Shown: positions 1 through 30,841, counted from the first letter of the stretch. The stretch: DNA of 32,000 nucleotides from Candidatus Iainarchaeum sp. (GCA_016205145.1 JACQJH010000001.1:180001-212000), one strand, 5' to 3'. Made by a program: numbers and translations. Notes: a model not told the origin generated them from the sequence alone.

Positions 1-3000
1 AAACGTCGCCCTGGTATGGCGCGGGGTGGTAAGTAAACTGCAGTCCGTCAAGCGCTATCGGCGCGCCTTCAAACTGGCAGTTGTTTGAAATGTTTGAAAT
101 GTGCGGCCCGGTTTTTCCGGCATCGGTTGAATCGTTCCATTCGAAGTTGTCGACTGAAACGCATTTGTCGGCAGGAGTTTCCCCGAAGCCGATTGCAACG
201 TTCAATGGAATGAACACGTCATAGGTTTTTGCGAACGCCTGGTTCTGGAACGTGAGCCAGACCCACCCGTCAAGGCTTTCCTGCCTGTCGACAATGCCGG
301 CTGAAACGAGCTGTGTCTTGATTATGTCCGCGAGCTCTTTTGCCTGCAAGGGCTTTATTTCCAGGCCGTTAGTTTTTGTCTGCAGGAACGAAAGCATTGC
401 AGTATAATCCAGTACTCCGAAAAACCTTGAGCTTTTTTCCTTGTAGTCCGATTTCGTCAGCTTCAGTGTTTCGCCGATGTGGCTTGTCGCAGTGAGAATC
501 GTGGAAATAGTTTCGTTGGTTTTTGCCCGCGTGTCAAGCCTTGACTGCAGTTTTTCCGGTTCGAATGAAAGTATCTGGCCTGAAACAGTCAGAGCGAGCG
601 GCTTGTCGAGCCAGTAGCCGATTTTTTCGGCTCCGAAAACAATTTGCGTCAATGGCGAGCTTGCCGGAACATGCACAATAACTTCGCCGTTGTCGCTGCT
701 CATGCAGTTGTTCCCTGAAACGCATGCGAGCCAGCTTTCGCTTGCATCGGCAAGAATTTTTTTTGCCTTGACAAGCACGCCGGAAAGCGGTTTTCCCGAA
801 CTGTCTTTGACTGTCACAAGAATGTCTTTCTGTTCGAATGCGTTGACCGCCGAGGGTTCGACTGCCAACGCCATGTCTTCCTTGCTTGCCGTCTTGAATT
901 CTATTTTTTTCCTGTAAACCGTCTGTCCGCCTGAAACAATGCGCGCTTCAAGGCCTGAGCTTTCAAGCTTTTTGCCTTCAATCCACAGCTTTGCGAGAAC
1001 GCTTTTGCCCTTTGAAAAGCCGCCAAGCGGAATTGCCGGCGACTTGAATGCGTTGAAATTGGCGTTCGCGTTTTCATGCGAGTCCGCGTCAAGCAGCGAG
1101 TATTTGCGGATGAGAATGCTTTCGTTGTCCGCACCATGCGAATCGACGCTTGCAATTATGAGCTGTATGCCGTTGAATTGCGCGTCGGAATTGTTTTTGA
1201 TTACAAAGTTCAGTAGGTATGGGCCGAAGACCGTCAGAGCGTACGGCTTGTCGTCGAGGAAAAGGTTTGACTGCTCGTCCAAAACATCCTCGCCTGCATA
1301 GCAGAAGTCCTGGCCGCATGTTACGGGCACGCCTTCCAGGAATTCGTTGATTTCAAACGTCTGCGCGAACAATTCCTTTTTCGCCGCGGTTTCACGCGCG
1401 CTTCCCAACCCGGCATCGGCCGGCATCCTGCTGTAAGTGTCTCCGCTGGCGGTCCAGGCCCGGTAGTGCATTGGCAATGGTGTCATCGGCGCAGTGCTTT
1501 TCTTCACCACGACCTCGAACGCCGCGTAAACCACTTCCGGTTCGGTTGTTGAAAATTTCGCATCCGCCCACTTGCCGACGCTTGCAGAGCTTTCAAGCAG
1601 GTTTTCAGCGTCGCTTCCAAGCGGCGGATTGAATGCGGAACCTTTCTCTATCTTGGCATTGCCGGCATCTATTTCGCCGATGTAAAGCGCGTCCCCTGAA
1701 ACAGTGTTCGTGTCGCCGGTCCTGAAATGTATGCCTGCCTGCTGGACAGCTGAGGGCAGTTTGAATTTGAAGAGTGCGAGATATCGTTTTCCTGATTCCA
1801 TTGCCTGGGCTTCGGAATAGTTTTCAAGCATTCCTTCGAACGAAACGCTTGGCTGGGAAATGCTGCCTTGCAATGGCAGTTCGGCCTTGAATTCCGCGAG
1901 AGTGTCGGGCCACAGCATTTTCGGGATTGTCTGTGCCTTCACGTGGTTGGGCGAGGTTATGACTGCAAACACTTTTCTTCCGGCCCTGATTTTCTGGGAA
2001 AGCGTGCCCTGCGGCATGTCATACCTTGCAATGCTTTGCCCCGCCATGTCGAAGAATTCGGCCTGCGAGTTCTGCAGCAATTCGTTCTGCTCGCTTCTCG
2101 CCTCGACCGAAACATCCGCGTCGCCGACAGCCAGTGTTACCTTGAATTCATTGAGCTCTTTTTTCGCAATCTTTTTTGCAAGCTCCCTTGCCGCGGTGTA
2201 AGCCGGCCATTTTTCGGCTGAAGGATAGAGAACCTCTTCGCGTATGCCCTGCCAGCCTGCCGTGCCATTCGCGTCCGTTGACTGCACCGCATACGGCGTA
2301 AGGCTTCCCGCCGCGCTGCCCTCGCCGAAAAGCAGTTTCACTTTCGCGCCTTCAACCGCCTGTCCGCTTTCATCAACAACCTGCACCCTGATTTTTCCGG
2401 AATTTTCCGGAGTCACTTTTTCAAGCTCTATTTTAAGGCTCTGCTCGCCGCTGAGCGAGGCAATGCCGGTCTGCGCGTAAAAATAGTCGTCCTGAATCGC
2501 GTAAACAATGAGGCTTTGCTGGGGGTCGAAGAATGCAAACGAAAGGGTTTTTGCCTCGCTTCCCGTGTTTCCCTTTTCAATGGCCACGCCGGAGCTGTTC
2601 CTCACTTCGACATCCGCATTGGCAATTGCGTTGTTTGTGCCCTTTTCCACGACCTGCACTGAAAGCCTGGCGCGCACGTTCCTTGAAACAGTCGCAGTCA
2701 CAAGGGTTTCCCCGGCAGGGTTGACCTGAATCCCCGCCTGTGTGTAGCTTGAATACAATGCGTTCTCGTCGCTCACAGTTACCGCATATTTTTTAGGCGC
2801 AAGGTTCTTGAACGAAACCTGGCCGTAGTATTCGGTCTGCTTCGATTCAATGGCGCTGCCGTCGTTGTCCTTCAATGAAACATTGAAGCTTGCCGCAGTA
2901 ACGCTGTTTGCCTGTTCATCCTGCACGATTACCCTGATTTTGCCTGTCGCCCCGGCCGGCCCCTCACGCGGCTCAGGCTGCTGGCCCGAGCAGTCTTCCG

Positions 3001-3823
3001 CGCACACTTCAGTGTTTTCGTTTGACTGGCAAACTCCGTCGCCGCAGCTTGCACCCGTGCCGGGGATGCTGCCGGTTGATGGAGTAAGCGTTATGCTGTT
3101 TGTCGGCTGCGGCAACTGGAATGTTTGCTCGGTAAAGCCCAGTGCAACGACAGTTGCACTCATGCCAATGCATTGCGCGGCGTTTTCGACTATGATTATG
3201 CCGTCGCCGTCTTCGTCTGAAAGCAGTTCAATCGGAATAGTGCCTTCCCTGCATGAAAGCTTCACTGTCGTGCCCTTTTTTGCGATTCTCTCGCCGGTCG
3301 GCGCCTTGAAAATTATTGTCTTTGTCTGCGGCCCGATTTCAATTGACGGGCTTTGCAATGTGAGCGTCTGTTTTTCCCTGGCGCTTGCGACAATCTTTTT
3401 CTGCAATGCGTCGAACTTTTTGCCGTTGATGACCTGCGATTTTATGAGCAGTTCGACTTCGCTGTCAAGCGGCACGGTTATCGAGAAAGCGCCTTGGGCA
3501 TCGGTTTCCGTTGAAAGGCTCTTGTCAGCAAACCTGTAATCGACCTTGACTTTTGCCAAAGCCTGCCCGGAAGCGTCTTTCACTTCGAATGGAATCGTTA
3601 TGTTTTCCTGGAACAGGTTCGGCAGGCCGCCTGAAAGCGCGCTGATGCCCCACACTCCGACCAAGAGAACGGCAAGCAGCACGAGCAAAAAGCTTGGAAT
3701 CATGCGGTCAATCGGGTCGATTGCCCTGTAGACAGGCACGACCTTGTTGATTCTGTCCAGTAAACCGTAATAGCCGTCTTCCAGCGAATAATAGATGTCT
3801 TTAAGGCTCTGAATCAGTCCCAT
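1..3823 (-). CDS. Very large membrane-anchored cell-surface protein. The 5' end is complete and the 3' end runs off the left edge (over 1274 codons). N-terminal cytoplasmic stub plus one TM helix, then repeated carboxypeptidase-regulatory-like/Ig-like beta-sandwich modules and a Cys-rich CGDGVC..EDC linker.
   Basis: Absent from the ORF track because there is no stop inside the window. I checked every plus-strand triplet in register with 3821-3823 from 3823 down to 2. None is tta/cta/tca, so the minus frame is open for 1274 codons. The ATG at 3823 is the first ATG after an in-frame TAG (3902-3904). Translation begins MGLIQSLKDIYYSLEDGYYGLLDRINKVVPVYRAIDPIDRMIPSFLLVLLAVLLVGVWGI. Later segments GKIRVIVQDEQANSV.. 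and GKIRVQVVDESGQAVEGAKVKL look like CarboxypepD_reg-type repeats. The motif ASCGDGVCQSNENTEVCAEDCSG lies at nt 2990-3046. Confidence 0.8.
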   Translation of the reverse strand, partial: MGLIQSLKDIYYSLEDGYYGLLDRINKVVPVYRAIDPIDRMIPSFLLVLLAVLLVGVWGISALSGGLPNLFQENITIPFEVKDASGQALAKVKVDYRFADKSLSTETDAQGAFSITVPLDSEVELLIKSQVINGKKFDALQKKIVASAREKQTLTLQSPSIEIGPQTKTIIFKAPTGERIAKKGTTVKLSCREGTIPIELLSDEDGDGIIIVENAAQCIGMSATVVALGFTEQTFQLPQPTNSITLTPSTGSIPGTGASCGDGVCQSNENTEVCAEDCSGQQPEPREGPAGATGKIRVIVQDEQANSVTAASFNVSLKDNDGSAIESKQTEYYGQVSFKNLAPKKYAVTVSDENALYSSYTQAGIQVNPAGETLVTATVSRNVRARLSVQVVEKGTNNAIANADVEVRNSSGVAIEKGNTGSEAKTLSFAFFDPQQSLIVYAIQDDYFYAQTGIASLSGEQSLKIELEKVTPENSGKIRVQVVDESGQAVEGAKVKLLFGEGSAAGSLTPYAVQSTDANGTAGWQGIREEVLYPSAEKWPAYTAARELAKKIAKKELNEFKVTLAVGDADVSVEARSEQNELLQNSQAEFFDMAGQSIARYDMPQGTLSQKIRAGRKVFAVITSPNHVKAQTIPKMLWPDTLAEFKAELPLQGSISQPSVSFEGMLENYSEAQAMESGKRYLALFKFKLPSAVQQAGIHFRTGDTNTVSGDALYIGEIDAGNAKIEKGSAFNPPLGSDAENLLESSASVGKWADAKFSTTEPEVVYAAFEVVVKKSTAPMTPLPMHYRAWTASGDTYSRMPADAGLGSARETAAKKELFAQTFEINEFLEGVPVTCGQDFCYAGEDVLDEQSNLFLDDKPYALTVFGPYLLNFVIKNNSDAQFNGIQLIIASVDSHGADNESILIRKYSLLDADSHENANANFNAFKSPAIPLGGFSKGKSVLAKLWIEGKKLESSGLEARIVSGGQTVYRKKIEFKTASKEDMALAVEPSAVNAFEQKDILVTVKDSSGKPLSGVLVKAKKILADASESWLACVSGNNCMSSDNGEVIVHVPASSPLTQIVFGAEKIGYWLDKPLALTVSGQILSFEPEKLQSRLDTRAKTNETISTILTATSHIGETLKLTKSDYKEKSSRFFGVLDYTAMLSFLQTKTNGLEIKPLQAKELADIIKTQLVSAGIVDRQESLDGWVWLTFQNQAFAKTYDVFIPLNVAIGFGETPADKCVSVDNFEWNDSTDAGKTGPHISNISNNCQFEGAPIALDGLQFTYHPAPYQGDV

Positions 3824-3835
3824 CCGAATCCCGCG

Positions 3836-3890
3836 CCGCCACTGCCGGCGGGTCAGCGCCAAGGCGTATCGCTGTCGCGATACGCCGAGC
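3836..3890 (+). repeat. Double-hairpin repeat unit, copy 1: GC hairpin, CCAAGG linker, then a 10 bp stem-loop and CCGAG.
   Basis: ccgcc/actgcc/ggcgg at 3836-3851. ggcgtatcgc/tgtc/gcgatacgcc at 3863-3886. Confidence 0.7.
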
Positions 3891-3928
3891 AACAGATCCC
3901 GCTAAAACTCGGATGTATAATAGCGTTT

Positions 3929-3942: not shown

Positions 3943-3992
3943 ATTGCTCTTGCGCCCAAATGAAATTTTCTGATTATAAAAAAGGGCTGCCC

Positions 3993-4058
3993 GGCATATT
4001 GCACAAGCAATATGCCTTGGCTCCGAACGCAGGGGGCTCTGCCCCCTCGCACGCCCCC
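3993..4058 (-). repeat. Double-hairpin repeat unit, copy 2 (inverted relative to copy 1), with a G-run hairpin module.
   Basis: ggcatattgc/acaa/gcaatatgcc at 3993-4016, then the ttgg linker. agggggc/tct/gccccct at 4031-4047, then cgcacgccccc. Confidence 0.7.
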
Positions 4059-4080
4059 AATCATTTACTACTGCTTACTC

Positions 4081-4131
4081 GGCGTATTGCACAAGCAATA
4101 CGCCTTGGTTCCGAACCAGCCGGACGGAACC
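4081..4131 (-). repeat. Double-hairpin repeat unit, copy 3 (inverted relative to copy 1).
   Basis: ggcgtattgc/acaa/gcaatacgcc at 4081-4104, then the ttgg linker. ggttccg/11 nt/cggaacc at 4107-4131. It abuts the stop codon at 4134. Confidence 0.7.
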
Positions 4132-4133
4132 GG

Positions 4134-6887
4134 CTAGTTTCTCATTTTGATTATGAGCGCTATGACGAGGATTATGATGATTATGATGAGGCCGGCTGTC
4201 AGGGCGTTGTCCGCGATTATCGCGAAAGCAGTTGAAACAGCGTTGCCTTCTACCGGTGCGGGCTTGAGCTGAACGGTTTTTGTTACCTGCTCGTTACCGG
4301 CAGTGAACCTGACTGGAACGCTGACTTCCTTGTCAATGCCCTTGTCCTGTTTGACAGTGAAAGCGATTTTCCTGGTTTCGTTTGCGGCAAGCGTCAAATC
4401 CTTTGTGGTTTCGCCGCTGAATTCCTTCGGCAGGCCGATTTCGATTGTGCCCGAAACAAGGCTGTCGGACTTGTTCTGCAACGTTACAGTGATTTCGGTT
4501 TCATTGCCTTTCGCTTCGGTTTCAACGCCGATCGTTACCCTGTCCGCAAGCCTCTGCCCTGAAACGAGTTTCAACTGCGAGGTTTTTTCGCTTATGCTGC
4601 AGCCTGAAAGCGTTGTGTCGAAGACAATCTGTGCGCTGCCTGAAAGCAATTGCACGTCGATGAGCTTTGCAGTGAAAGAATTTTTCGGCACGGTGATTGT
4701 GTCGGGTGCAGCGGTTGCGCCGATGCCCTTTACGATGATTGTCGCGCTTCTCCCGAGGGGGTTTTCGATTGAAACCAGGACCTTGTCCTCTTTTGCCAAG
4801 GCAATTTCTTTCGGCACTACAAGTTTGAAGTCCGGGCAGCTCGCCTGGTCGACATAGCCGTTAGTGTAAGCATAGCCGTTGTTGTTGAAATTGTCGCTGC
4901 CATTGTAATTGTTGCCGGAGCCGCCGTAACTGTTGTCGACCCTGACCGAAAAGCTTTCGCTTATGCCTGAGCACTGCCTGTTGCCGGCGCTTTCGCTGAA
5001 ATAGCCGCTGGCCCTGACAGTAGCAGTGCCTTCCACATTGCTCCTGTCAAACGAGTCGACCCGCACTCTTATGCGGCCTCTTCCGCCCGGCGCAATCGAA
5101 TTGTCGTAGTCGAGTTCGCGGACATTGAAGTAGCCGCTGTTGTCGGTTGCGCCCGCGCTTGAAATGTAGAACCTGCTGTTCGAATTGTTGACTATGTCGA
5201 ACGACGCGTATTCCGTCGAATTCGTGCCAAGCGAAACGTTTCCGGCGTTTATGTAAACGCTTGAGCAGCTTGACGAAAAGTTCGCGGCATTGTCGTTGAG
5301 GTAGACGGTTATTTCCTGCAGGCCGATGTCGTCAAAGCTCACTGCCGGGCCGCCCTCGAACCTGCCCCTCACCTTGTAATATGCCTTGACTGTCTTGTCG
5401 CCCGTGAGAACGGATGACACGAACCTGAGCCTTATGCGGCCGCTTCCCCTGCCGTCAATCTGGCTGTCGTAAGTGGAAACGCTTGGGCTGAAATCGGAAC
5501 TCGGAGTGTAAGTCTGCACTTCCTCAACGTAAAACCTTTTTCCGGAATCGTTTCTTATCGTGAAGGTTTCAATCCTCTGGTCGTTTTCGTTCAATGTTAC
5601 CGAATGGTTGTCAAAGCTTATGTCGGAAGCATTGCCGGAAGCGCCGTTGTTGCTGATGAAAACATTGAATCTTTCATCGCCTATTTCGGAGAACGAGCAT
5701 GTTCTCCCGTCCGAAAAGCGGCCCCTCAGTCCGGCTGTAGCGCTCGAACTCTGGTCGAAGTCGACGCTGCCGGCCGAAATCCTGGCTTCAAGCTCGCCCG
5801 AGCCGTTCGCGGCTATGCTTGGGCTGAAATAGCCTTCGGTCGCATTGAAGTAGGAGCTGTTGTCGCTGACATTGACTTCGTCAACGTAAAACGTCCTGTC
5901 GGAATTGTTGCGCACGGAAAACCTTTCGGTTACGCTTTCGTTTTCATTCACGTAAACTGAGTGCGTGTTAACTGTTATGTCGGCGCAGCTTGAATTGCCC
6001 GAGCCGCCGCCATTGCCGTTTCTTGGCAACACTCTGACAGTTCCTGTCATTTCGGAATGGAACCTGCAATGGTAATAGTATGTGCCTTCAGTGTTGAAGG
6101 TTTTCCTGTAAGTGCCGTTGTAGTTCAGGGTTCCGCTGTCGCCGCCCGTGTTTTCAAACGTGACCGTGTGCGAGTTGTTTCCGAGGTTGACCCATTCGAC
6201 TGTGTCGCCCTCATAAACCGTTATCGTGCCCGGGCTGAAATAGTTGTCCCTTATCTGCACGTCGGCGTTGCCATAATAGCCGCCGCCATTGCCCCCGCCA
6301 TAATTGCCGCCGGAGCCTCCGCCGGAAACGTTCACGTAAGCCCATTCTTCGTCCTGTATGACGTTGTCCTCTTCAAGGCCCGCGTAAACCACTATCTTGT
6401 AATTGTTGTACCTGTCGTCAATCCTGAAAGCGTCGCCCCACTGCACTTCGCCGTCAGCGTCCTGGTAGAGTGCGACTCCCTTGTTGGGATAATTGAAATA
6501 GTATGCCGAGCCCGGGGCAAAGTATGCCTCTGAATAGTTTCCAAAAGTGTAACTGGTGTTGGCGTAGTTGTAGGATTTCGGGTACAAATAGAATCTTTTC
6601 GTTTCCGTCTGCTTGATGTACTCGTAGCCATTGCCGCGGTCGCCGTAAATTTTAGCATAGGCGAAGACTTTTGCGTAAGGCTCGTATCCTGCCGTGTTCA
6701 GGTAAAGGAATGCCCTGACGTCGACAAGGTCATTGTCGCTTCCGCTTGGCTGATAGGCCCAGTCCGCGCCCGAATCCGTGCGGGCCTGCACGAAAGAAAT
6801 GTCAACTGAATAGTTTGAAGCCGCAAAAACGGTTTGCGTGAGAAAAAGCAAGACGAATGCGATTATGAGATGCCTGAACAGTTTCAA
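4134..6887 (-). CDS. 917 aa secreted, C-terminally anchored surface protein with a cupredoxin (type-1 blue copper) domain and three internal repeats of about 115 aa.
   Basis: TTG start at 6887, 8 nt downstream of GGGGG. Sec-type signal MKLFRHLIIAFVLLFLTQTVFA/AS. Residues about 209-287 (nt 6027-6263), GDTVEWVNLGNNSHTVTF...GTYYYHCRFHSEMTG, match the cupredoxin ligand pattern H...C-x2-H-x2-M. Repeats lie at nt 4932-5990. G/N/Y-rich linkers and many N-x-S/T sequons are present. Hydrophobic C-terminus LTAGLIIIIIILVIALIIKMRN. Confidence 0.85.
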   Translation of the reverse strand: MKLFRHLIIAFVLLFLTQTVFAASNYSVDISFVQARTDSGADWAYQPSGSDNDLVDVRAFLYLNTAGYEPYAKVFAYAKIYGDRGNGYEYIKQTETKRFYLYPKSYNYANTSYTFGNYSEAYFAPGSAYYFNYPNKGVALYQDADGEVQWGDAFRIDDRYNNYKIVVYAGLEEDNVIQDEEWAYVNVSGGGSGGNYGGGNGGGYYGNADVQIRDNYFSPGTITVYEGDTVEWVNLGNNSHTVTFENTGGDSGTLNYNGTYRKTFNTEGTYYYHCRFHSEMTGTVRVLPRNGNGGGSGNSSCADITVNTHSVYVNENESVTERFSVRNNSDRTFYVDEVNVSDNSSYFNATEGYFSPSIAANGSGELEARISAGSVDFDQSSSATAGLRGRFSDGRTCSFSEIGDERFNVFISNNGASGNASDISFDNHSVTLNENDQRIETFTIRNDSGKRFYVEEVQTYTPSSDFSPSVSTYDSQIDGRGSGRIRLRFVSSVLTGDKTVKAYYKVRGRFEGGPAVSFDDIGLQEITVYLNDNAANFSSSCSSVYINAGNVSLGTNSTEYASFDIVNNSNSRFYISSAGATDNSGYFNVRELDYDNSIAPGGRGRIRVRVDSFDRSNVEGTATVRASGYFSESAGNRQCSGISESFSVRVDNSYGGSGNNYNGSDNFNNNGYAYTNGYVDQASCPDFKLVVPKEIALAKEDKVLVSIENPLGRSATIIVKGIGATAAPDTITVPKNSFTAKLIDVQLLSGSAQIVFDTTLSGCSISEKTSQLKLVSGQRLADRVTIGVETEAKGNETEITVTLQNKSDSLVSGTIEIGLPKEFSGETTKDLTLAANETRKIAFTVKQDKGIDKEVSVPVRFTAGNEQVTKTVQLKPAPVEGNAVSTAFAIIADNALTAGLIIIIIILVIALIIKMRN

Positions 6888-7088: not shown

Positions 7089-8561
7089 TCAACCTTTTAT
7101 GTTTCCTATCGGTTTCAGGCCGAAAACCTTCCTGCTGATGCCTGCCTTGTCCATTGTGTCAACCACTTCCGAGATACTCTTGTACGCGCCTCCGGCCTCT
7201 TCTGCAAGGCCTTGCGTGGAAGCCGACTTCACAAAAATGCCCTGCCTTTCCATTCTTTTCAGCAGTTCCCCGCCATTGAACTCCTTTTTTGCCTGTGCCC
7301 TTGACATGGTCCTTCCAGAACCGTGCATTGTGCTGCCAAAAGTCTCATCCATTGCCTTTTCAGTGCCCGCGCAGACAAAACTGCCGGTTTCCATCGAACC
7401 GCCGACAATGACCGGCTGGCCGATTCCGCGGTACATTTCCGCCAACTCGGGCTGGCCGGGACCAAAGCTTCGCGTGCTTCCCTTCCTGTGAACTACAAGC
7501 TTTTTCCTCTTGCCTTCGACCTTGTGCTCTTCGACCTTCGCGATGTTGTGCGCGACGTCGTAAACGATTTCCATTCCCATGGACTCCGCGCTTTGGCCGA
7601 GGACCCGTTCAAAAGCCAAGCGCGTATTATGTATAATAGCCTGCCTGTTGCAGAACGCATAGTTGCTTGCACAGGCCATCGCGGCATAATATCTTTTGCC
7701 TTCTCCGCTTGCAAATGGCGCACACGCAAGTTCCCTGTCCTTTACGTTCAGGCCGTATTTTTTCATGGCCGGCTCGAACTCCCTCACATAGTCCGTGCAA
7801 ATCTGGTGGCCGAATCCGCGCGAACCGCAGTGGACCATCACAAAAATCTGCCCTTCCTTTACAAGGCCCTCTTCCAATCCAAACGCCTTTCCCGCCTTCC
7901 AGTCAAAAACATTTTCCTCACGGACAACCTGCACTTCAAGGTAATGGTTTCCCGAGCCAAGCGTGCCAAGCTGGACCATGCCCCTATCAAAGGCTTCCTT
8001 GCTCACCATTGCAGGATTCGCTCCTTCAACCCTGCCTTTCTCTTCAATCCTTTCCGCGTCATTCTTCCAGCCGAAGCCCTTGCGCACAATCCACGGAACT
8101 CCTTCAACCATCATTTCCTGCATTTCACTTCGCGAAAGCTTCAATGTTCCCTTCCTTCCAACGCCCGCCGGCACCAGTTCAAACAGCCTGTTCACAAGGT
8201 CCCTTATTTTGGGCTGAACGTCCTTCAAAGTCAGATTCGTTTTCAACAGGCGCATGCCGCAGTTCACGTCAAAACCGATGACTCCGGGGCTGATGACGCC
8301 TTCTTCCAGATCAAATGCGGCAACGCCGCCAACAGGGCTTCCGTATCCTTGGTGCGCGTCGGGCATGGCAAGCGCATACCTTTGGATGCCTGGCATGCAG
8401 GCAATGTTTGTCACCTGCTCGAAGACGCCGTCATCCATTCCGTCAAAAAGCGTTTTGTTCGCGTAAATCCGCGCCGGAACATTCATGCCGGGCTTTTCCG
8501 TTTTCGGAATTTCCCAGACAAACTCGTTCACCCTTTCGACTTTCATGCCCTTTTTCTGCAT
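7089..8561 (-). CDS. rtcB: RtcB RNA 3'-phosphate/tRNA-splicing ligase.
   Basis: EIPKTEKPGMNVPARIYA..., MPDAHQGYGSPVGGV, GFDVNCGMRL and GSGNHYLEVQ are classic RtcB motifs. The track start at 8666 overlaps archease. The first ATG after the A-rich spacer is 8561 (MQKKGMKVERV); 8546 is an alternative. Confidence 0.92.
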   Translation of the reverse strand: MQKKGMKVERVNEFVWEIPKTEKPGMNVPARIYANKTLFDGMDDGVFEQVTNIACMPGIQRYALAMPDAHQGYGSPVGGVAAFDLEEGVISPGVIGFDVNCGMRLLKTNLTLKDVQPKIRDLVNRLFELVPAGVGRKGTLKLSRSEMQEMMVEGVPWIVRKGFGWKNDAERIEEKGRVEGANPAMVSKEAFDRGMVQLGTLGSGNHYLEVQVVREENVFDWKAGKAFGLEEGLVKEGQIFVMVHCGSRGFGHQICTDYVREFEPAMKKYGLNVKDRELACAPFASGEGKRYYAAMACASNYAFCNRQAIIHNTRLAFERVLGQSAESMGMEIVYDVAHNIAKVEEHKVEGKRKKLVVHRKGSTRSFGPGQPELAEMYRGIGQPVIVGGSMETGSFVCAGTEKAMDETFGSTMHGSGRTMSRAQAKKEFNGGELLKRMERQGIFVKSASTQGLAEEAGGAYKSISEVVDTMDKAGISRKVFGLKPIGNIKG

Positions 8562-8610
8562 TTCAAAAACCGGTTTTTTTATTTTTATTTTTCTTTCTTT
8601 TTTTTTGCTT

Positions 8611-9075
8611 TCAAATGTCCAATACCACCGTCGCCTTCCACGCGCTTCCATCCTTTTCAACGGCAAACAGGTGCTTTGTTATGGCCTTGACATCCGTGCC
8701 CGCGGATTCGACTTCTTCAACCTTCTGGCCGAAAACCCTGGCCTTCAGCACGAATTCGGCGCCCTTTTTCACTATGTCGACGTCGAACTTTCCGAACAAG
8801 GCGCCTTCGACATCCTTCAAATAAATCAGCCTGCTAAGCCAGTCGTACAGCAGATTTTCAATCGAATCGGATTTCAATTCGACCTTTTTTTCCAGTTTCG
8901 GCCTTACCTTTTTCGTCCTTGTCATGACCTCAAACAATGCGAGCGCGCAACTGCGGAACAACTCTTCCTCGCTTTCGCCGAAAGCCTCGAATGCGACATC
9001 CGCTATCGCGACGTTCTCGATGTAAACGAATTTCCTGAACTTCTGCTCAGATTTCTTCGCCTCTTTTTGCCGCAT
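8611..9075 (-). CDS. Archease (RtcB activator/RNA-chaperone family).
   Basis: IADVAFEAFGESEEELFRSCALALFEVM ... VKAITKHLFAV ... ATVVLDI resembles the archease family. It sits directly upstream of rtcB, the usual pairing. ATG at 9075 follows AGGTGA by 6 nt. The track start at 9081 is an upstream TTG. Confidence 0.82.
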   Translation of the reverse strand: MRQKEAKKSEQKFRKFVYIENVAIADVAFEAFGESEEELFRSCALALFEVMTRTKKVRPKLEKKVELKSDSIENLLYDWLSRLIYLKDVEGALFGKFDVDIVKKGAEFVLKARVFGQKVEEVESAGTDVKAITKHLFAVEKDGSAWKATVVLDI

Positions 9076-9094
9076 GCCCAATCACCTGCCGGCC

Positions 9095-14740: not shown

Positions 14741-15172
14741 TTACCTTTTCACTTTTTCCTTCTTGCCCTTTCTCAGCATCTCAAGGCTTTGCCCGTTGAC
14801 CTGTATGACCTTGAACTTGACGCCCCAAAGGTCGCCCGGCGAACCGCCTTTCCTGCCGCCAAGGCCTTCAATGAGCACTTCATCGTGCTCGTCAATGTGC
14901 TTTATCGCTCCGTCGAACGGCGCAAGCGCTGTAACCTGCCTTCCGTTCTTTATCAGCTGGACCCTCACGCATTTCCTTATGCCCGAGTTCGGCTGTCTTG
15001 CAGTGACACCCCTTTTTTCTATGACAATGCCCTTTGCCTGCGGGCTTCCTTCCAGTATTTCGGCTTTCGGCTTCTTGTTCCTGTGCATCCTTTCCCTGTA
15101 AGGGCGCTTTCTCCACTTCTGCTGTTTCCTCTTTTTTTCAAGCGACCTTGCCGCGTTTTCGCCTTTCGCCAT
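14741..15172 (-). CDS. rps12: 30S ribosomal protein S12 (uS12).
   Basis: [45 protein letters not shown] at 15172 lies 4 nt after GGTGAT; the in-frame ATG at 15184 is an alternative. Confidence 0.92.
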
Positions 15173-15211
15173 AAAAATCACCATTTGCCTTGCCTGACAT
15201 CCTCAAAACTT

Positions 15212-15250
15212 TCATCTTATTCTTATATCCTCAAAACCGTAATCACGCGC
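15212..15250 (-). pseudogene. Diverged duplicate of the last 11 codons plus stop of nusA.
   Basis: The minus strand reads cgt gat tac ggt ttt gag gat ata aga ata aga tga (RDYGFEDIRIR*). The live nusA end at 15310-15345 reads cgc aat tac ggt ttt gag gaa gta aga ata cgg tga (RNYGFEEVRIR*). Confidence 0.6.
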
Positions 15251-15277
15251 AGGGGACTCCGTCCCCTCGCACGCCCC
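15251..15277. repeat. G-run hairpin module, same family as 4031-4058.
   Basis: aggggac/tcc/gtcccct followed by cgcacgcccc. It differs from the 4031 copy by a compensatory G:C to A:T pair in the stem. Confidence 0.65.
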
Positions 15278-15309
15278 TGGAAAAACACAATTTTTGTCCT
15301 GCAATCTTT

Positions 15310-15723
15310 TCACCGTATTCTTACTTCCTCAAAACCGTAATTGCGCTTTGCTATTTCCCTTACCCTGGCAACCTTTTTTTTCGACTCCATGAGGGTTCTC
15401 CTGCTTTCCGAGGAAATCCTGACCGACACTGCCTTTCCGCTTTCGCCCCTGCGCGATTCAACGCCTTCAACCGCCATCGGCGCCAAGGCCTTTTTGAAAA
15501 ACCTTTCAGGGCTCTTCGAATATTCGACTATCTCGATTTTTTTTCCAAGCCTTTCGGAGAGCCTTTTCACGTTCTGGGCGCCCTTGCCGATTGCCCTGCC
15601 CACATCTTTTCCCCAGACAAGGAAAGAGACAGTGGAACCGTCAACAATGCAGTCCCTTGCCCCGACACCCGAAATTTTTTCAAGCGCGTTCATCAGCATT
15701 ATCTCCTCTAAGCCAAGCTTCAT
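15310..15723 (-). CDS. nusA: Archaeal NusA-like KH-domain transcription factor.
   Basis: Two KH-type GxxG segments (VGRAIGKGAQNVKRLSERLGKKIEIVEY). Conserved position between L30e and S12. Confidence 0.87.
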   Translation of the reverse strand: MKLGLEEIMLMNALEKISGVGARDCIVDGSTVSFLVWGKDVGRAIGKGAQNVKRLSERLGKKIEIVEYSKSPERFFKKALAPMAVEGVESRRGESGKAVSVRISSESRRTLMESKKKVARVREIAKRNYGFEEVRIR

Positions 15724-16038: not shown

Positions 16039-16073
16039 GCAGTATCACTGAACAAAATTGCACAGCCGGAACG

Positions 16074-16107
16074 AAAAAAACAGAAGGATTCAAAAGAAGC
16101 GCCTTCT
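16074..16107 (-). terminator. Terminator-like hairpin plus T7 run inside the leader of L30e.
   Basis: The minus strand reads agaagg cgcttcttttgaat ccttct g ttttttt. The T7 run is at 16074-16080, 36 nt before the L30e ATG. Confidence 0.35.
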
Positions 16108-16163
16108 CATTTTTTACTCCAGCGCAATAAGACCTGTCCGGGCAAGCATTTTAAAAAGCAATC

Positions 16164-16249
16164 CCCGGCGATTTCGTCCGCCGGGTTCGACGACGGGTAT
16201 TCTTCGCAAACCATTGGTTTGCGACGTGCCCAGAATCTTCGGATTCTGG
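16164..16249 (+). repeat. Triple hairpin module downstream of rpoA''.
   Basis: cccggcg/atttcgtc/cgccggg at 16164-16185. tcgcaaacc/att/ggtttgcga at 16204-16224. ccagaatc/ttcg/gattctgg at 16230-16249. Confidence 0.7.
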
Positions 16250-16294
16250 AGCATCGCTTCGCTCAATACCCCTCTGTCCGCCTTTAAATCTCTT

Positions 16295-20249: not shown

Positions 20250-22067
20250 TCAAACCTTGTCCTTTATGATGAGCTTGGGGAAAACTCCCAAAGCCTTCAG
20301 CTCGTCAAGCAATAATTTGAAACTGTAACTCATTTCAATCGGATAAATGCGCGCGCTGTCGCACAAAGGGCAGAAACGCTTGTTCCTGATGACGTCGTTG
20401 ACTGCCAGCACGCCGCACCTTTCGCAGACGTATTCGACGGTCTTGTCCGAGCTTTCAATGAGCTTTTCCTGCAGCAGCATGGCCGCGCCATGCCCAACCA
20501 GTGTTTCGGCTTCCATTTCGCCGAAGCGCAGGCCGCCTTCCTTCTCTTTCCCTTCTGTCGGCTGCCTTGTCAGAATCTGCACTGGCCCGCGCGACCTGGA
20601 CTGCATCTTGTGCGCGACCATGTGGAACAGCCTCCTGTAACCGCATACGCCCACAAAAATTTCGCCTTCAAGCCTTTCGCCTGAAACCCCGTCGTAAAAC
20701 ACTTCCTTGCCGTCGCTCCTGAAACCGTAATCCGACAGCATTCCTTCAAGCGCTTCCAAAGGGGTTTCATTGAACGCAGTGCCATCAATCGCTTTCGACT
20801 TCAATGAGCCGGCCTTGCCTGCAATCATTTCCAGCAAATGCCCGATCGTCATCCTTGAAGGAATCGAATGCGGGTTAATTATCAGATCCGGCTTTATGCC
20901 TTCGGCAGTGAACGGCATGTCTGCTTCAGGTATGACCCCGCCGATGACGCCTTTCTGGCCGTGCCTGCTTGAAAACTTGTCACCGCGCTCCGGAGACATT
21001 TCGGTCCTCACCTTGACCTTGATCAATTTGTTGCCGTCCTCGCTTTCAGTCACGATAACTTTGTCAACATATCCCGGCTTGCCCTTGCGCGTTATCACGG
21101 AGCTTTCCCTTCTCTTTTCCTTGACAACGCCGAACTCGGATATTTCCTCCAAAAACCTTGGAGGCGAGGTTCTTCCGACGATTATTTCCTTTTCCTTGAC
21201 TTCTGCCTCAACTCTCACAAGGCCGTCCTCTCCAAGATTCTTGTAGGCATCCTCTCCAAGATAGCCTTCGACGTCTTCCGCCGGAATCTCAAGCTTGTCC
21301 TTCTGCCCGCCCGGATACCTGTTCTCGGTTCCGTCGTACGTCCTGTAATATGCGGCCCTTCCGAGGCCCCTTTCAACCGAGCCCTCGTTCAGCACAAGAG
21401 CGTCCAAGACATTGAAACTGTAAAACGGCATGATCGCAACGACAAAGTTCTGGTTCTGCGGCCTCTTGTCCACGCCGATGAAATCCATGACTTTCGTTTT
21501 CACAAGATGCGACTGAGGATAGTAAAGCAAAAAGCCCTCGGTGTCCGTGCGCAAATTCATGTTGATTGCCGGAATGCCAAGCGCCTGCTTGAACATTTTT
21601 GCGCCGTGCAATGCCTTGCCCGCCATGTTATGCGTAAGGTACGGGATCATGGAAGTGATGAGCGAAAAAACCGCGGAAGCGTCAATCTCAAGATGCGTGT
21701 GCTCGTTCGAAAGCTCGTCCTCGGAAACCGCGACAAAAGCGTTTTCCTCCTCTTCGGAGTCAAGGTACTCTATTATGCCCTTGCTTATCAGGTCGTTCCA
21801 CGAAAACTTGCCTTCCTTCGCCATGCGCACGTGCTCGTCCGTCAGCAACGGCCTGCCGTTCTCAACAATAATGAGGGGCCTCTGCACCCTTCCGGAATCG
21901 GTGTTGATGTAAACCTCGTTCGTCTGCCTGTTCAAGGCAACATTCACGAGATGCGAGATTTTTCCGGAACGCCTCGACTTTATGAGCTCCTGCGTCAGTT
22001 TCTCAGGGCTCTCATGGAAACCAATGAGCCTTCCGTTGATGTAAACCTTTCCGATTTCCGCCATCAT
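20250..22067 (-). CDS. rpoB1: DNA-directed RNA polymerase subunit B' (C-terminal half of split B).
   Basis: RHGQKGV, PSRMTIG, GGLRFGEME and the C-terminal Zn ribbon CERCG...CPLC. Confidence 0.95.
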   Translation of the reverse strand: MMAEIGKVYINGRLIGFHESPEKLTQELIKSRRSGKISHLVNVALNRQTNEVYINTDSGRVQRPLIIVENGRPLLTDEHVRMAKEGKFSWNDLISKGIIEYLDSEEEENAFVAVSEDELSNEHTHLEIDASAVFSLITSMIPYLTHNMAGKALHGAKMFKQALGIPAINMNLRTDTEGFLLYYPQSHLVKTKVMDFIGVDKRPQNQNFVVAIMPFYSFNVLDALVLNEGSVERGLGRAAYYRTYDGTENRYPGGQKDKLEIPAEDVEGYLGEDAYKNLGEDGLVRVEAEVKEKEIIVGRTSPPRFLEEISEFGVVKEKRRESSVITRKGKPGYVDKVIVTESEDGNKLIKVKVRTEMSPERGDKFSSRHGQKGVIGGVIPEADMPFTAEGIKPDLIINPHSIPSRMTIGHLLEMIAGKAGSLKSKAIDGTAFNETPLEALEGMLSDYGFRSDGKEVFYDGVSGERLEGEIFVGVCGYRRLFHMVAHKMQSRSRGPVQILTRQPTEGKEKEGGLRFGEMEAETLVGHGAAMLLQEKLIESSDKTVEYVCERCGVLAVNDVIRNKRFCPLCDSARIYPIEMSYSFKLLLDELKALGVFPKLIIKDKV

Positions 22068-28054: not shown

Positions 28055-28115
28055 CAAAAAAACCGTTCAAAAATTTAGGCCGGCAATTGTTTTAAAGCTT
28101 GCCTCGCCGTCATCG

Positions 28116-28192
28116 CCCGGCGGGTGCGAAACCAAGGCCTTCGTTGCAAAATCTTGGATTTTGCGACGTGCCCAGAATCTTTGGATTCTGGG
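28116..28192 (+). repeat. Hairpin module downstream of the Q/G-rich protein gene, homologous to 16164-16249.
   Basis: cccggcggg, then gcgaaaccaagg. cgttgcaaaatc/ttg/gattttgcgacg at 28142-28168. cccagaatc/tttg/gattctggg at 28171-28192. Confidence 0.7.
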
Positions 28193-28262
28193 GCATCACT
28201 GTTGTGAAAGACCGAGTGAGCTAATTTTCAATATTACTGTGCGAAAAGAATTTTTTTTTGTT

Positions 28263-30712: not shown

Positions 30713-30768
30713 CCGGCGGTTTCGTCCGCCGGGTCCGAAACCAAGGCGTATTGCTGATGCAATACGCC
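30713..30768 (+). repeat. Double-hairpin repeat unit, copy 4 (same orientation as copy 1).
   Basis: ccggcgg/tttcgt/ccgccgg at 30713-30732, then the gtccgaaaccaagg linker. ggcgtattgc/tgat/gcaatacgcc at 30745-30768, then gag. Confidence 0.7.
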
Positions 30769-30841
30769 GAGTATGCCAGCATATGATGCAAAAGTGCACA
30801 CTTGGCTTGTATTTGTGCCTGCAACCGGAATCGTTTTTCTT

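Follow-up and report, generated by a model that had tools for sequence, protein, structure and literature searches.

The window, by which we mean the whole 32-kb stretch of DNA analysed here and to which all statements on the gene content, repeats and enzymes of the host are limited, carries on its minus strand the archaeal cluster rpoB''-rpoB'-rpoA1-rpoA2-L30e-nusA-S12-S7-EF2-EF1α. Homologues of this nusA contain the KH_2 and KH_NusA_2nd domains and stand in the gene order rpoA2-L30e-nusA-S12-S7-EF2. The nearest named homologues of the neighbouring and related genes come from 'Candidatus Diapherotrites' or from unclassified archaeal MAGs, and the host is probably a DPANN archaeon. Elsewhere in the window (7089-9081, minus strand) a gene for the RtcB tRNA-splicing ligase adjoins one for archease, an ordinary pairing that fits intron-containing tRNAs in this lineage. 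The junction between nusA and S12 comprises the following features, where E1 is the hairpin module studied here.

15310..15723, minus strand: nusA, archaeal NusA-like KH protein of 137 aa (from the ORF list; stop codon TGA at 15312-15310)
15308..15346, minus strand: copy A, the live tail of nusA (RNYGFEEVRIR, stop, 2-3 nt), representing the half of the target duplication on the far side of the insert's ragged end
15278..15307, plus strand: variable tail ("linker") of the insert, TGGAAAAACACAATTTTTGTCCTGCAATCT, which differs among E1 copies
15249..15277, plus strand: E1 core, GCAGGGGACTCCGTCCCCTCGCACGCCCC, of which 28 nt are identical to the copy in metagenome contig L103
15210..15248, minus strand: copy B, a silent copy of the nusA tail (RDYGFEDIRIR, stop), directly adjoining the conserved end of E1
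15178..15209, minus strand: copy C, a degenerate third copy of the tail (10 residues in frame), adjacent to S12, in the ancestral position
14741..15172, minus strand: rpsL-type ribosomal protein S12 of 143 aa (real start ATG at 15172-15170)

A start of S12 at ATG 15184 was rejected as a spurious upstream extension, the S12 proteins of relatives having 143 aa.

Copies A and B coincide at 33 of 39 nt (85%), with a start-to-start distance of 98 nt and 59 nt between them, and copy A comprises the final 11 codons of nusA, the stop codon and 3 nt. Aligned locally, the two flanks reach a score of 48, compared with a mean of 15.8 (sd 2.3, maximum 24) for shuffled sequences. Translated from the minus strand in frame with nusA, the two copies give RNYGFEEVRIR and RDYGFEDIRIR, each followed by the stop, and TGAAAG comes after B and likewise after A. 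The six nucleotide differences (C/T, A/G, A/T, G/A, C/A, G/A) are all synonymous or conservative, so that the first-pass annotation was right about both the duplication of 11 codons plus stop and the nature of the changes. Its further claim of protein-level selection on the silent copy is weak. When six random substitutions were placed on copy A, the observed BLOSUM sum was reached in 0.6% of trials, under a null that disregards selection acting on the live copy. Polarised by a relative with 76% NusA identity, about two of the six differences fall on live copy A, about three on B, and one is unpolarisable. The A-side differences would be conservative because of selection on the live gene end, and those on the B side are two conservative replacements, N to D and V to I, and the synonymous change AGG to AGA. 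The two differences of B closest to E1 mimic a junction in contig L096 (ATCACGC/GCAGGGG here, ATCACGAC/GCAGGGG there, a slash marking the boundary) and may have arrived with the insert. Selection on copy B is unnecessary to account for the pattern. A diversity-generating retroelement with template and variable repeats was rejected as an identity for this pair, since the differences are not confined to template adenines, the window has no reverse transcriptase, and the repeats are 39 nt long.

The third partial copy flagged by the same annotation is present, with GTTTTGAGGAT at 15199-15209. The extended match of copy C (15178-15209) to the nusA tail is modest, its score being reached by 3 of 500 shuffles in comparison with copy A, 17 of 500 with copy B and 25 of 500 with the tail of the relative. 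Copy C occupies the place of the ancestral tail, retains GGTGATTTTTATG, and terminates in GGTGA (15182-15178), which is the Shine-Dalgarno sequence of S12. The spacing between this sequence and the S12 ATG is unchanged despite the insertion.

The 59 nt between copies A and B start with the E1 hairpin module, which consists of GCA, the stem GGGGAC (15252-15257), the loop TCC, the stem GTCCCC (15261-15266) and the tail TCGCACGCCCC (15267-15277). As had been noticed earlier for 15251-15309 and approximately 4031-4058, the same module with a compensatory stem change (G:C to A:T) stands at an unrelated locus in the window: the 15-mer CCCCTCGCACGCCCC occurs twice, whereas 0.09 occurrences are expected. 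This second locus is composed of the following parts, E2 being another repeat family described below.

3992..4028, plus strand: left flanking repeat, an E2 copy cut off at ...TCCGAAC, directly adjoining E1
4029..4057, plus strand: second E1 copy, GCAGGGGGCTCTGCCCCCTCGCACGCCCC
4058..4079, plus strand: variable tail of the second insert, of which the final bases CTGCTTACT may already belong to E2
4080..4134, plus strand: right flanking repeat, a full E2 (first hairpin, TTGGTTCCGAACC, second hairpin), overlapping the stop codon of a 917-aa gene

Public contig sets were scanned for the module with the pattern GGGGN{5,9}CCCCTCGCACGCCCC, in which the 15-nt tail is forced to be exact, making the retrieval biased. 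Among the 56 loci matched in metagenome contigs only three qualify as true E1, namely those in L072, L096 and L103, contigs whose GC content of 51-53% is similar to that of the window. Together with the two loci of the window, five E1 copies are thus known. The 54 single matches in genome contigs (nearly all bacterial, at most one per locus, none like the lineage of the window) were set aside as unrelated, and the viral contigs yielded one high-GC match. Searching approximately 120 kb from related sequences with a covariance model of E1 added no copy.

Several other sequences resemble the module. A 26-mer formed by the hairpin and TCGCACGCCCC recurs in tandem units of 142-143 nt in L080 (2-857), L108, L068, L078, L084, L089, L090, L106 and L112. 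These contigs have 41-45% GC, L080 (the sole one checked for ORFs) has no ORF above approximately 110 aa, and the arrays resemble satellite repeats or a spacer array of a different, possibly eukaryotic, organism. Contigs L065, L070, L071, L074, L098 and L099 represent one conserved locus with 67-69% GC, where GGGGCTGACGCCCC-TCGCACGCCCC lies amid other hairpins; no flanking duplications accompany it, and an Rfam search of L065 alone matched no family. Both the tandem 26-mer and this high-GC bacterial locus were set aside as candidate E1 copies, having no flanking duplications. In the window itself, AGGGGCCTCTGCACCCT within the rpoB coding sequence (21874-21890) resembles the E1 stem-loop with one mismatch and no tail, probably by chance.

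The five copies share a 29-nt conserved core with a stem of 6-7 bp and a conserved flank of 11 nt, the core being identical across different contigs, and the whole insertions are 40-68 nt long. The two ends of the insertions differ. At the conserved end the joining point is constant to within ±2 nucleotides among the five copies, whereas the other end is ragged, with tails of 11-44 nt that are not conserved between copies; even with an identical 28-nt core, the tail is 11 nt long in L103 and 30 nt at nusA. No source of these tails was detected in the window or in related loci. The only trace of terminal inverted repeats is a weak match of GCAGGAC to GTCCCCTGC at locus 1, with nothing comparable in the other four copies. 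Both orientations relative to the neighbouring genes are found, and genes for a transposase, an integrase, Cas1 or a reverse transcriptase are absent from the window.

All five copies are bordered by direct repeats of 25-39 nt which are made of the local sequence of each site. The flanks score 30-59, and shuffled sequences reach at most 27; among the unrelated pattern matches we observed no significant flanking direct repeats. The left repeat always abuts the GCA or ACA end of E1, and the right one lies past the non-conserved tail. The lengths of the duplications are variable (26, about 25-31, 37 and 39 nt, up to approximately 42 nt). When the entire window was scanned for short-range direct repeats, the two longest ones (39 and 37 nt) were those bordering the two E1 copies.

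At three loci (locus 2 of the window, L072 and L096) the repeat families E2 or E3 supply the flanking repeats, and here a target duplication is indistinguishable from a repeat mosaic; in L096 the left and right flanks are different family members. E2 has the structure (GCTTACT)CGGCGTATTGC-NNNN-GCAATACGCC-TTGGTTCCGAACC followed by a second hairpin, also rendered as CTCGGCGTATTGC-NNNN-GCAATACGCC-TTGGTTYCGRACC followed by CRGCCGG-ACGNAA-CCGGC. Its copies lie in the window at 3835-3891 (minus strand), 3992-4028 (plus), 4078-4134 (plus) and 30717-30773 (minus), and in the related contig L001 at 5890-5950; the E2 pattern has no match in the viral contigs. Stem changes among the copies are compensatory (TATTGC/GCAATA, TATCGC/GCGATA, GTTCAC/GTGAAC), and at two loci E1 breaks E2 at the same point, ...CGAAC/GCA or ...CACGAC/GCA. 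The longer composite E3 (window 28100-28220 and 16179-16258; L096 1079-1199, the right flank of E1) joins an E2-like head to two nested hairpins, CCCAGAATC-CAAA-GATTCTGGG and GCAAAATC-CAAG-ATTTTGC, the L096 copy and that at 28.1 kb of the window being 89% identical over 121 nt.

The rpoA2-L30e spacer of about 260 nt (window 16039-16294, L001 5812-6081) has conserved edges and a different filling of hairpin repeats, E3-like in the window, where it contains one of the E3 copies, and in L001 composed of E2 and an E1-like variant, GCGGGGGTTGCGCCCCTTGCAAGCCCGC, at 5852-5879. In the 5' leader of a gene for a protein of more than 1270 aa, an E2 copy forms part of about 73 inserted nt that L122 does not have (window 3823-3905, minus strand; L122 3640-3660). 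The insertion is bordered by a short and imperfect repeat, GCGGGATCTG ... GCGGGATTCG, a hint that E2, too, duplicates approximately 10-13 nt of its target when inserting. Contig L096 contains a tRNA-Gly(GCC) gene (1394-1518, minus strand) that is interrupted by an intron of about 57 nt and that neither ARAGORN nor Rfam detected. The last 13 nt of this gene (CCCGGTGGTCGCA) are repeated at 1283-1295 (minus strand), past a 98-nt insert that comprises an E1-like hairpin, GTGCGA-AGTT-GAGGGGCT...AGCCCCTC-TGC, and an inverted partial copy of the tRNA's own intron (approximately 1336-1376, minus strand).

The comparison with related genomes that had been proposed as a check at the outset revealed an empty site at nusA/S12. 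In the closest relative, represented by four assemblies (L001-L004; NusA 76% identical), the nusA-S12 gap is 5 nt, the junction reads ...GTAAAGATAAGGTGATTTTTATGGCA... (over another span, ...AAGATAAGGTGATTTTTATG...) with one tail copy and no E1, and the TGA stop codon of nusA sits within the Shine-Dalgarno sequence of S12. Compared with this relative, the window contains exactly 132 extra nt, located between two GGTGA motifs. The junction is also tight in a 42% relative, where the Shine-Dalgarno sequence lies inside the final nusA codons, so that the tight state is ancestral. A 41% relative has a nusA/S12 spacer of 102 nt, in which no duplication was noticed by reading. The filled allele is reproduced in two independent Logan assemblies, and hence is not an assembly artefact.

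A second pair of alleles exists for the copy in L103, which is situated between cutA and an acetyl-CoA-synthetase-like gene (acs). The empty allele, observed in three assemblies of a relative, has the 26-nt sequence GGGGGAGGGTCAGGAATTCCCTGGAA once; the filled allele, also observed in three assemblies, has these 26 nt, then ACA-E1-CACTCGTTTAA (40 nt), then the 26 nt again, and is otherwise unchanged, so that the two alleles form a clean pair. As the flanks are locally different at each copy and the empty cutA/acs allele contains a single copy, the doubled DNA is native target, that is, a target-site duplication in the broad sense, rather than cargo of the element. E1 is missing at the corresponding loci of the close relatives L001 and L122. 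In L122, with a flanking gene 87% identical, locus 2 lacks both E1 and all three E2 copies, which indicates that small hairpin repeats turn over quickly. Near the cutA/acs site, about 70 nt 5' of the acs-like gene, GGGGGAGGGTCAGGARTTCCCTRGAACTGGGGAGGGGG-TKY-CCCCCTCCGCGGTTCGGAACGAAAACATCCG, are nearly identical between L124 (1040-1110) and L126 (1170-1240) despite CutA being only 71% identical, and are missing in the more distant L129; a leader structure that is conserved and a further repeat of recent origin are both possible readings of this stretch.

The first-pass annotation had proposed that an element inserted at the end of nusA and carried a replacement end, as integrative elements do. 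The empty site in the 76% relative bears out the insertion; the carried end finds no support, since the flanks are local to each copy, as the cutA/acs alleles illustrate, and an insert of 40-59 nt cannot hold five different matching ends. Spelled out, this model has the remnant of an integrase-type integrative element recombine with the nusA 3' end via an element-borne copy (attP with attB), leaving attL and attR. The doubling of a gene 3' end around foreign DNA, the conservative differences of the silent copy and the repetition of 13 nt of the tRNA-Gly 3' end 98 nt downstream around an E1-like hairpin in L096 agree with this model. It would, however, predict the same att core at each copy, whereas the five copies have five unrelated flanking repeats, and the cutA/acs empty site identifies the doubled segment as native target. 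Moreover, the inserts of 40-68 nt contain no integrase or remnant of one, so that five independent near-total deletions sparing the same 29 nt would have to be postulated. We consider this history highly improbable.

The repeated tail could also have been retained for a function, as an S12 leader or regulatory RNA motif, or as part of an RNA-level device such as a bulge-helix-bulge intron, by which the insert would be cut out of the mRNA. The S12 Shine-Dalgarno sequence is kept in copy C, the plus strand of the region folds more stably than shuffled sequences (z = -3.2), and RtcB and archease are encoded nearby. The sense strand, in contrast, is unremarkable (z = -1.5), E1 occurs in both orientations relative to the neighbouring genes, and the relatives do without such a leader, having their S12 Shine-Dalgarno sequence inside nusA. 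Bulge-helix-bulge candidates are at the chance level: under strict criteria locus 1 yields three, where 1.0 is expected and the maximum is 4. As none of them lies at the A/B boundaries or joins A to B in frame, the intron was rejected. Against Rfam 15 the window has no match at the gathering threshold or at E<=1, and none is observed at the module in 20 related loci. A functional role of the tail is hence very unlikely. Among other RNA identities, tRNA scans found nothing at the module, a C/D-box sRNA was rejected with only a C-box-like GUGAUUA present and the D box missing, and a mimic of a tRNA 3' half was rejected on motifs or tests.

We take E1 for a repeated hairpin element, very small and non-autonomous, which belongs to this archaeal lineage and whose insertion duplicates the target, and assign to this reading a probability of about 0.6; the more general statement that E1 inserts and that the insertion makes the duplication we regard as quite likely. 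A miniature mobile repeat with unusually long target duplications best fits the pattern. What counts against an element is that only five copies are available, three of them retrieved with the pattern demanding an exact 15-nt tail, that the flanks are ambiguous at three loci, and that the window encodes no candidate enzyme. In addition, the irregular ends and lengths are unlike those of any well-characterised prokaryotic transposase, the 15% divergence of A and B has to be explained by age, by errors during fill-in or by junction bases that stem from the donor, and the tandem copy C needs a separate event.

The hallmarks of miniature insertion elements are terminal inverted repeats and target-site duplications (PMC10969869). 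Like MITEs, E1 is short, non-coding, multicopy, intergenic and presumably mobilised in trans, with empty sites and direct repeats of the target. Unlike them, it has no terminal inverted repeats and a single conserved end, no insertion sequence is present in the window, and the insert (40-68 nt) is smaller than MITEs usually are. Target duplications of 2-14 bp are the rule in most families of IS and MITEs, whereas those of E1 range from 26 to about 42 nt, vary, and are nearly as long as the element. The combination of one precise and one ragged end, absent terminal inverted repeats, long variable duplications, insertion beside existing hairpins at several sites and either orientation excludes both ordinary MITEs and att-type integration. 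The elements integrated at 3' ends of tRNA or protein genes (SSV- and pNOB8-type, casposons at EF-2 or tRNA genes) similarly leave the gene end on both sides and the gene intact; however, they bring attP, are kilobases long and encode a recombinase, whereas the E1 flanks are native and differ per copy and nothing is encoded.

REPs and BIMEs are described in PMC3184786 and PMC2817692. With these RAYT-associated elements and REPINs E1 shares the GC-rich stem-loop of about 30 nt, the short conserved single-stranded flank, the intergenic location and either orientation, and, at the three loci where it adjoins E2 or E3, the mosaic arrangement. It differs in its archaeal host, a copy number that is so far low and the absence of a RAYT-like gene from the window; no target duplication is known to accompany the insertion of REPs. 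Integration by Cas1 (CRISPR spacers, off-target events, casposons) provides another parallel, as DNA of approximately 30-60 bp is inserted by strand attacks tens of bp apart, duplicating 14-37 bp. There the duplication is fixed by a ruler (repeat length; 14-15 bp for casposons), whereas that of E1 varies from 26 to at least 39 nt, and one and the same hairpin recurs in every E1 insert. Neither the window nor the loci showed a cas1 gene, a CRISPR array or terminal repeats of casposons. Searching the literature for the motif and for long prokaryotic target duplications returned nothing applicable.

If the insertions arose by copy-choice (template switching) during repair or replication, the nascent strand would copy E1 and a variable stretch elsewhere and return 25-45 nt upstream, yielding insert and duplication in one step, and E1 would be a favoured donor or stall site rather than a transposon. 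The ragged insert end, the lack of terminal inverted repeats and the variable duplication length would follow naturally, as would the extra tandem copies on the hairpin side at two loci (B/C here, U1/U2 in L072), the inverted copy of part of the intron beside the E1-like hairpin in the insert behind the L096 tRNA-Gly, and the resemblance of the E1-proximal bases of B to the E2/E1 junction of L096. Against it stands the conserved end, joined at the same nucleotide (±2) in five of five copies; the return junctions have no convincing microhomology, and the variable tails are sourceless in the 32-kb window and the related loci. This makes copy-choice an unlikely explanation, if the most serious of the rivals.

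Under retroposition via RNA, a transcript with the E1 hairpin at its end would be reverse-transcribed at a nicked, priming target, as in SINE/LINE pairs. In SINEs, one junction carries a conserved 3' stem-loop and the opposite end is ragged, and long target duplications of variable length are common to SINE/LINE and IS1634-type elements, so that the geometry fits: a conserved hairpin at one junction, raggedness at the other, and duplications of 26 to about 42 nt. The differences are that neither a reverse transcriptase nor an IS4-family transposase is found in the window, that poly-A or simple-repeat tails are absent, that the host is a prokaryote, and that the element measures tens of nucleotides; 5' truncation of one master RNA also predicts homologous tails, whereas the core-adjacent tails are not clearly homologous. 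No SINE/LINE-like retroposed element is known from prokaryotes, and we consider this route quite improbable.

We loosely favour integration with widely staggered strand openings over copy-choice and retroposition, without attaching much confidence to the preference. For the hairpin element, a trans-acting enzyme encoded elsewhere would precisely join the conserved hairpin end, the target strands would be opened 25-45 nt apart, and the gaps would then be filled; such a geometry would correspond to Cas1-type or target-primed integration rather than to DDE-type transposition of MITEs. At the nusA-S12 junction, originally 5 nt long, a 28-nt tandem duplication would first have produced the B/C pair, and the insertion of E1 would next have duplicated a target of approximately 39-42 nt, in keeping with the 25-40 nt doubled at the E1 sites generally, producing A, with the upstream copy becoming the live gene end after each step. 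Copy A would thereby keep the C-terminus and stop of nusA, copy B would be a silent by-product, and copy C would keep the ribosome-binding site of S12. An insertion here would be viable only if the nusA stop and the S12 Shine-Dalgarno sequence are both kept, which a long duplication spanning them accomplishes. At several sites the E1 insertion adjoins pre-existing hairpins. A more speculative extension, which we hold doubtful, is that E1 is the footprint of a kind of archaeal integration not yet described, in which a hairpin-ended nucleic acid of about 40-60 nt would enter beside existing hairpins with the strands opened 25-45 nt apart, through a Cas1-like integrase acting outside CRISPR or a target-priming reverse transcriptase (a SINE-like retroposon).

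Standard transposition in prokaryotes does not account for duplications nearly as long as the element, together with one precise and one ragged end. The duplication of a gene end around a hairpin is a signature recognisable in raw sequence, and it carries a caveat for annotation, as silent copies of gene tails that look selected can arise without a foreign replacement end. Insertion of the E1 type helps to explain the fast turnover of intergenic regions in this lineage. A tightly coupled junction of essential genes can take up mobile DNA if the duplication preserves the nusA stop and the S12 ribosome-binding site. Should the pattern of long duplications and unequal ends hold genome-wide, it would suggest that this poorly sampled archaeal lineage, probably a DPANN one, has a mechanism of integration not yet described.
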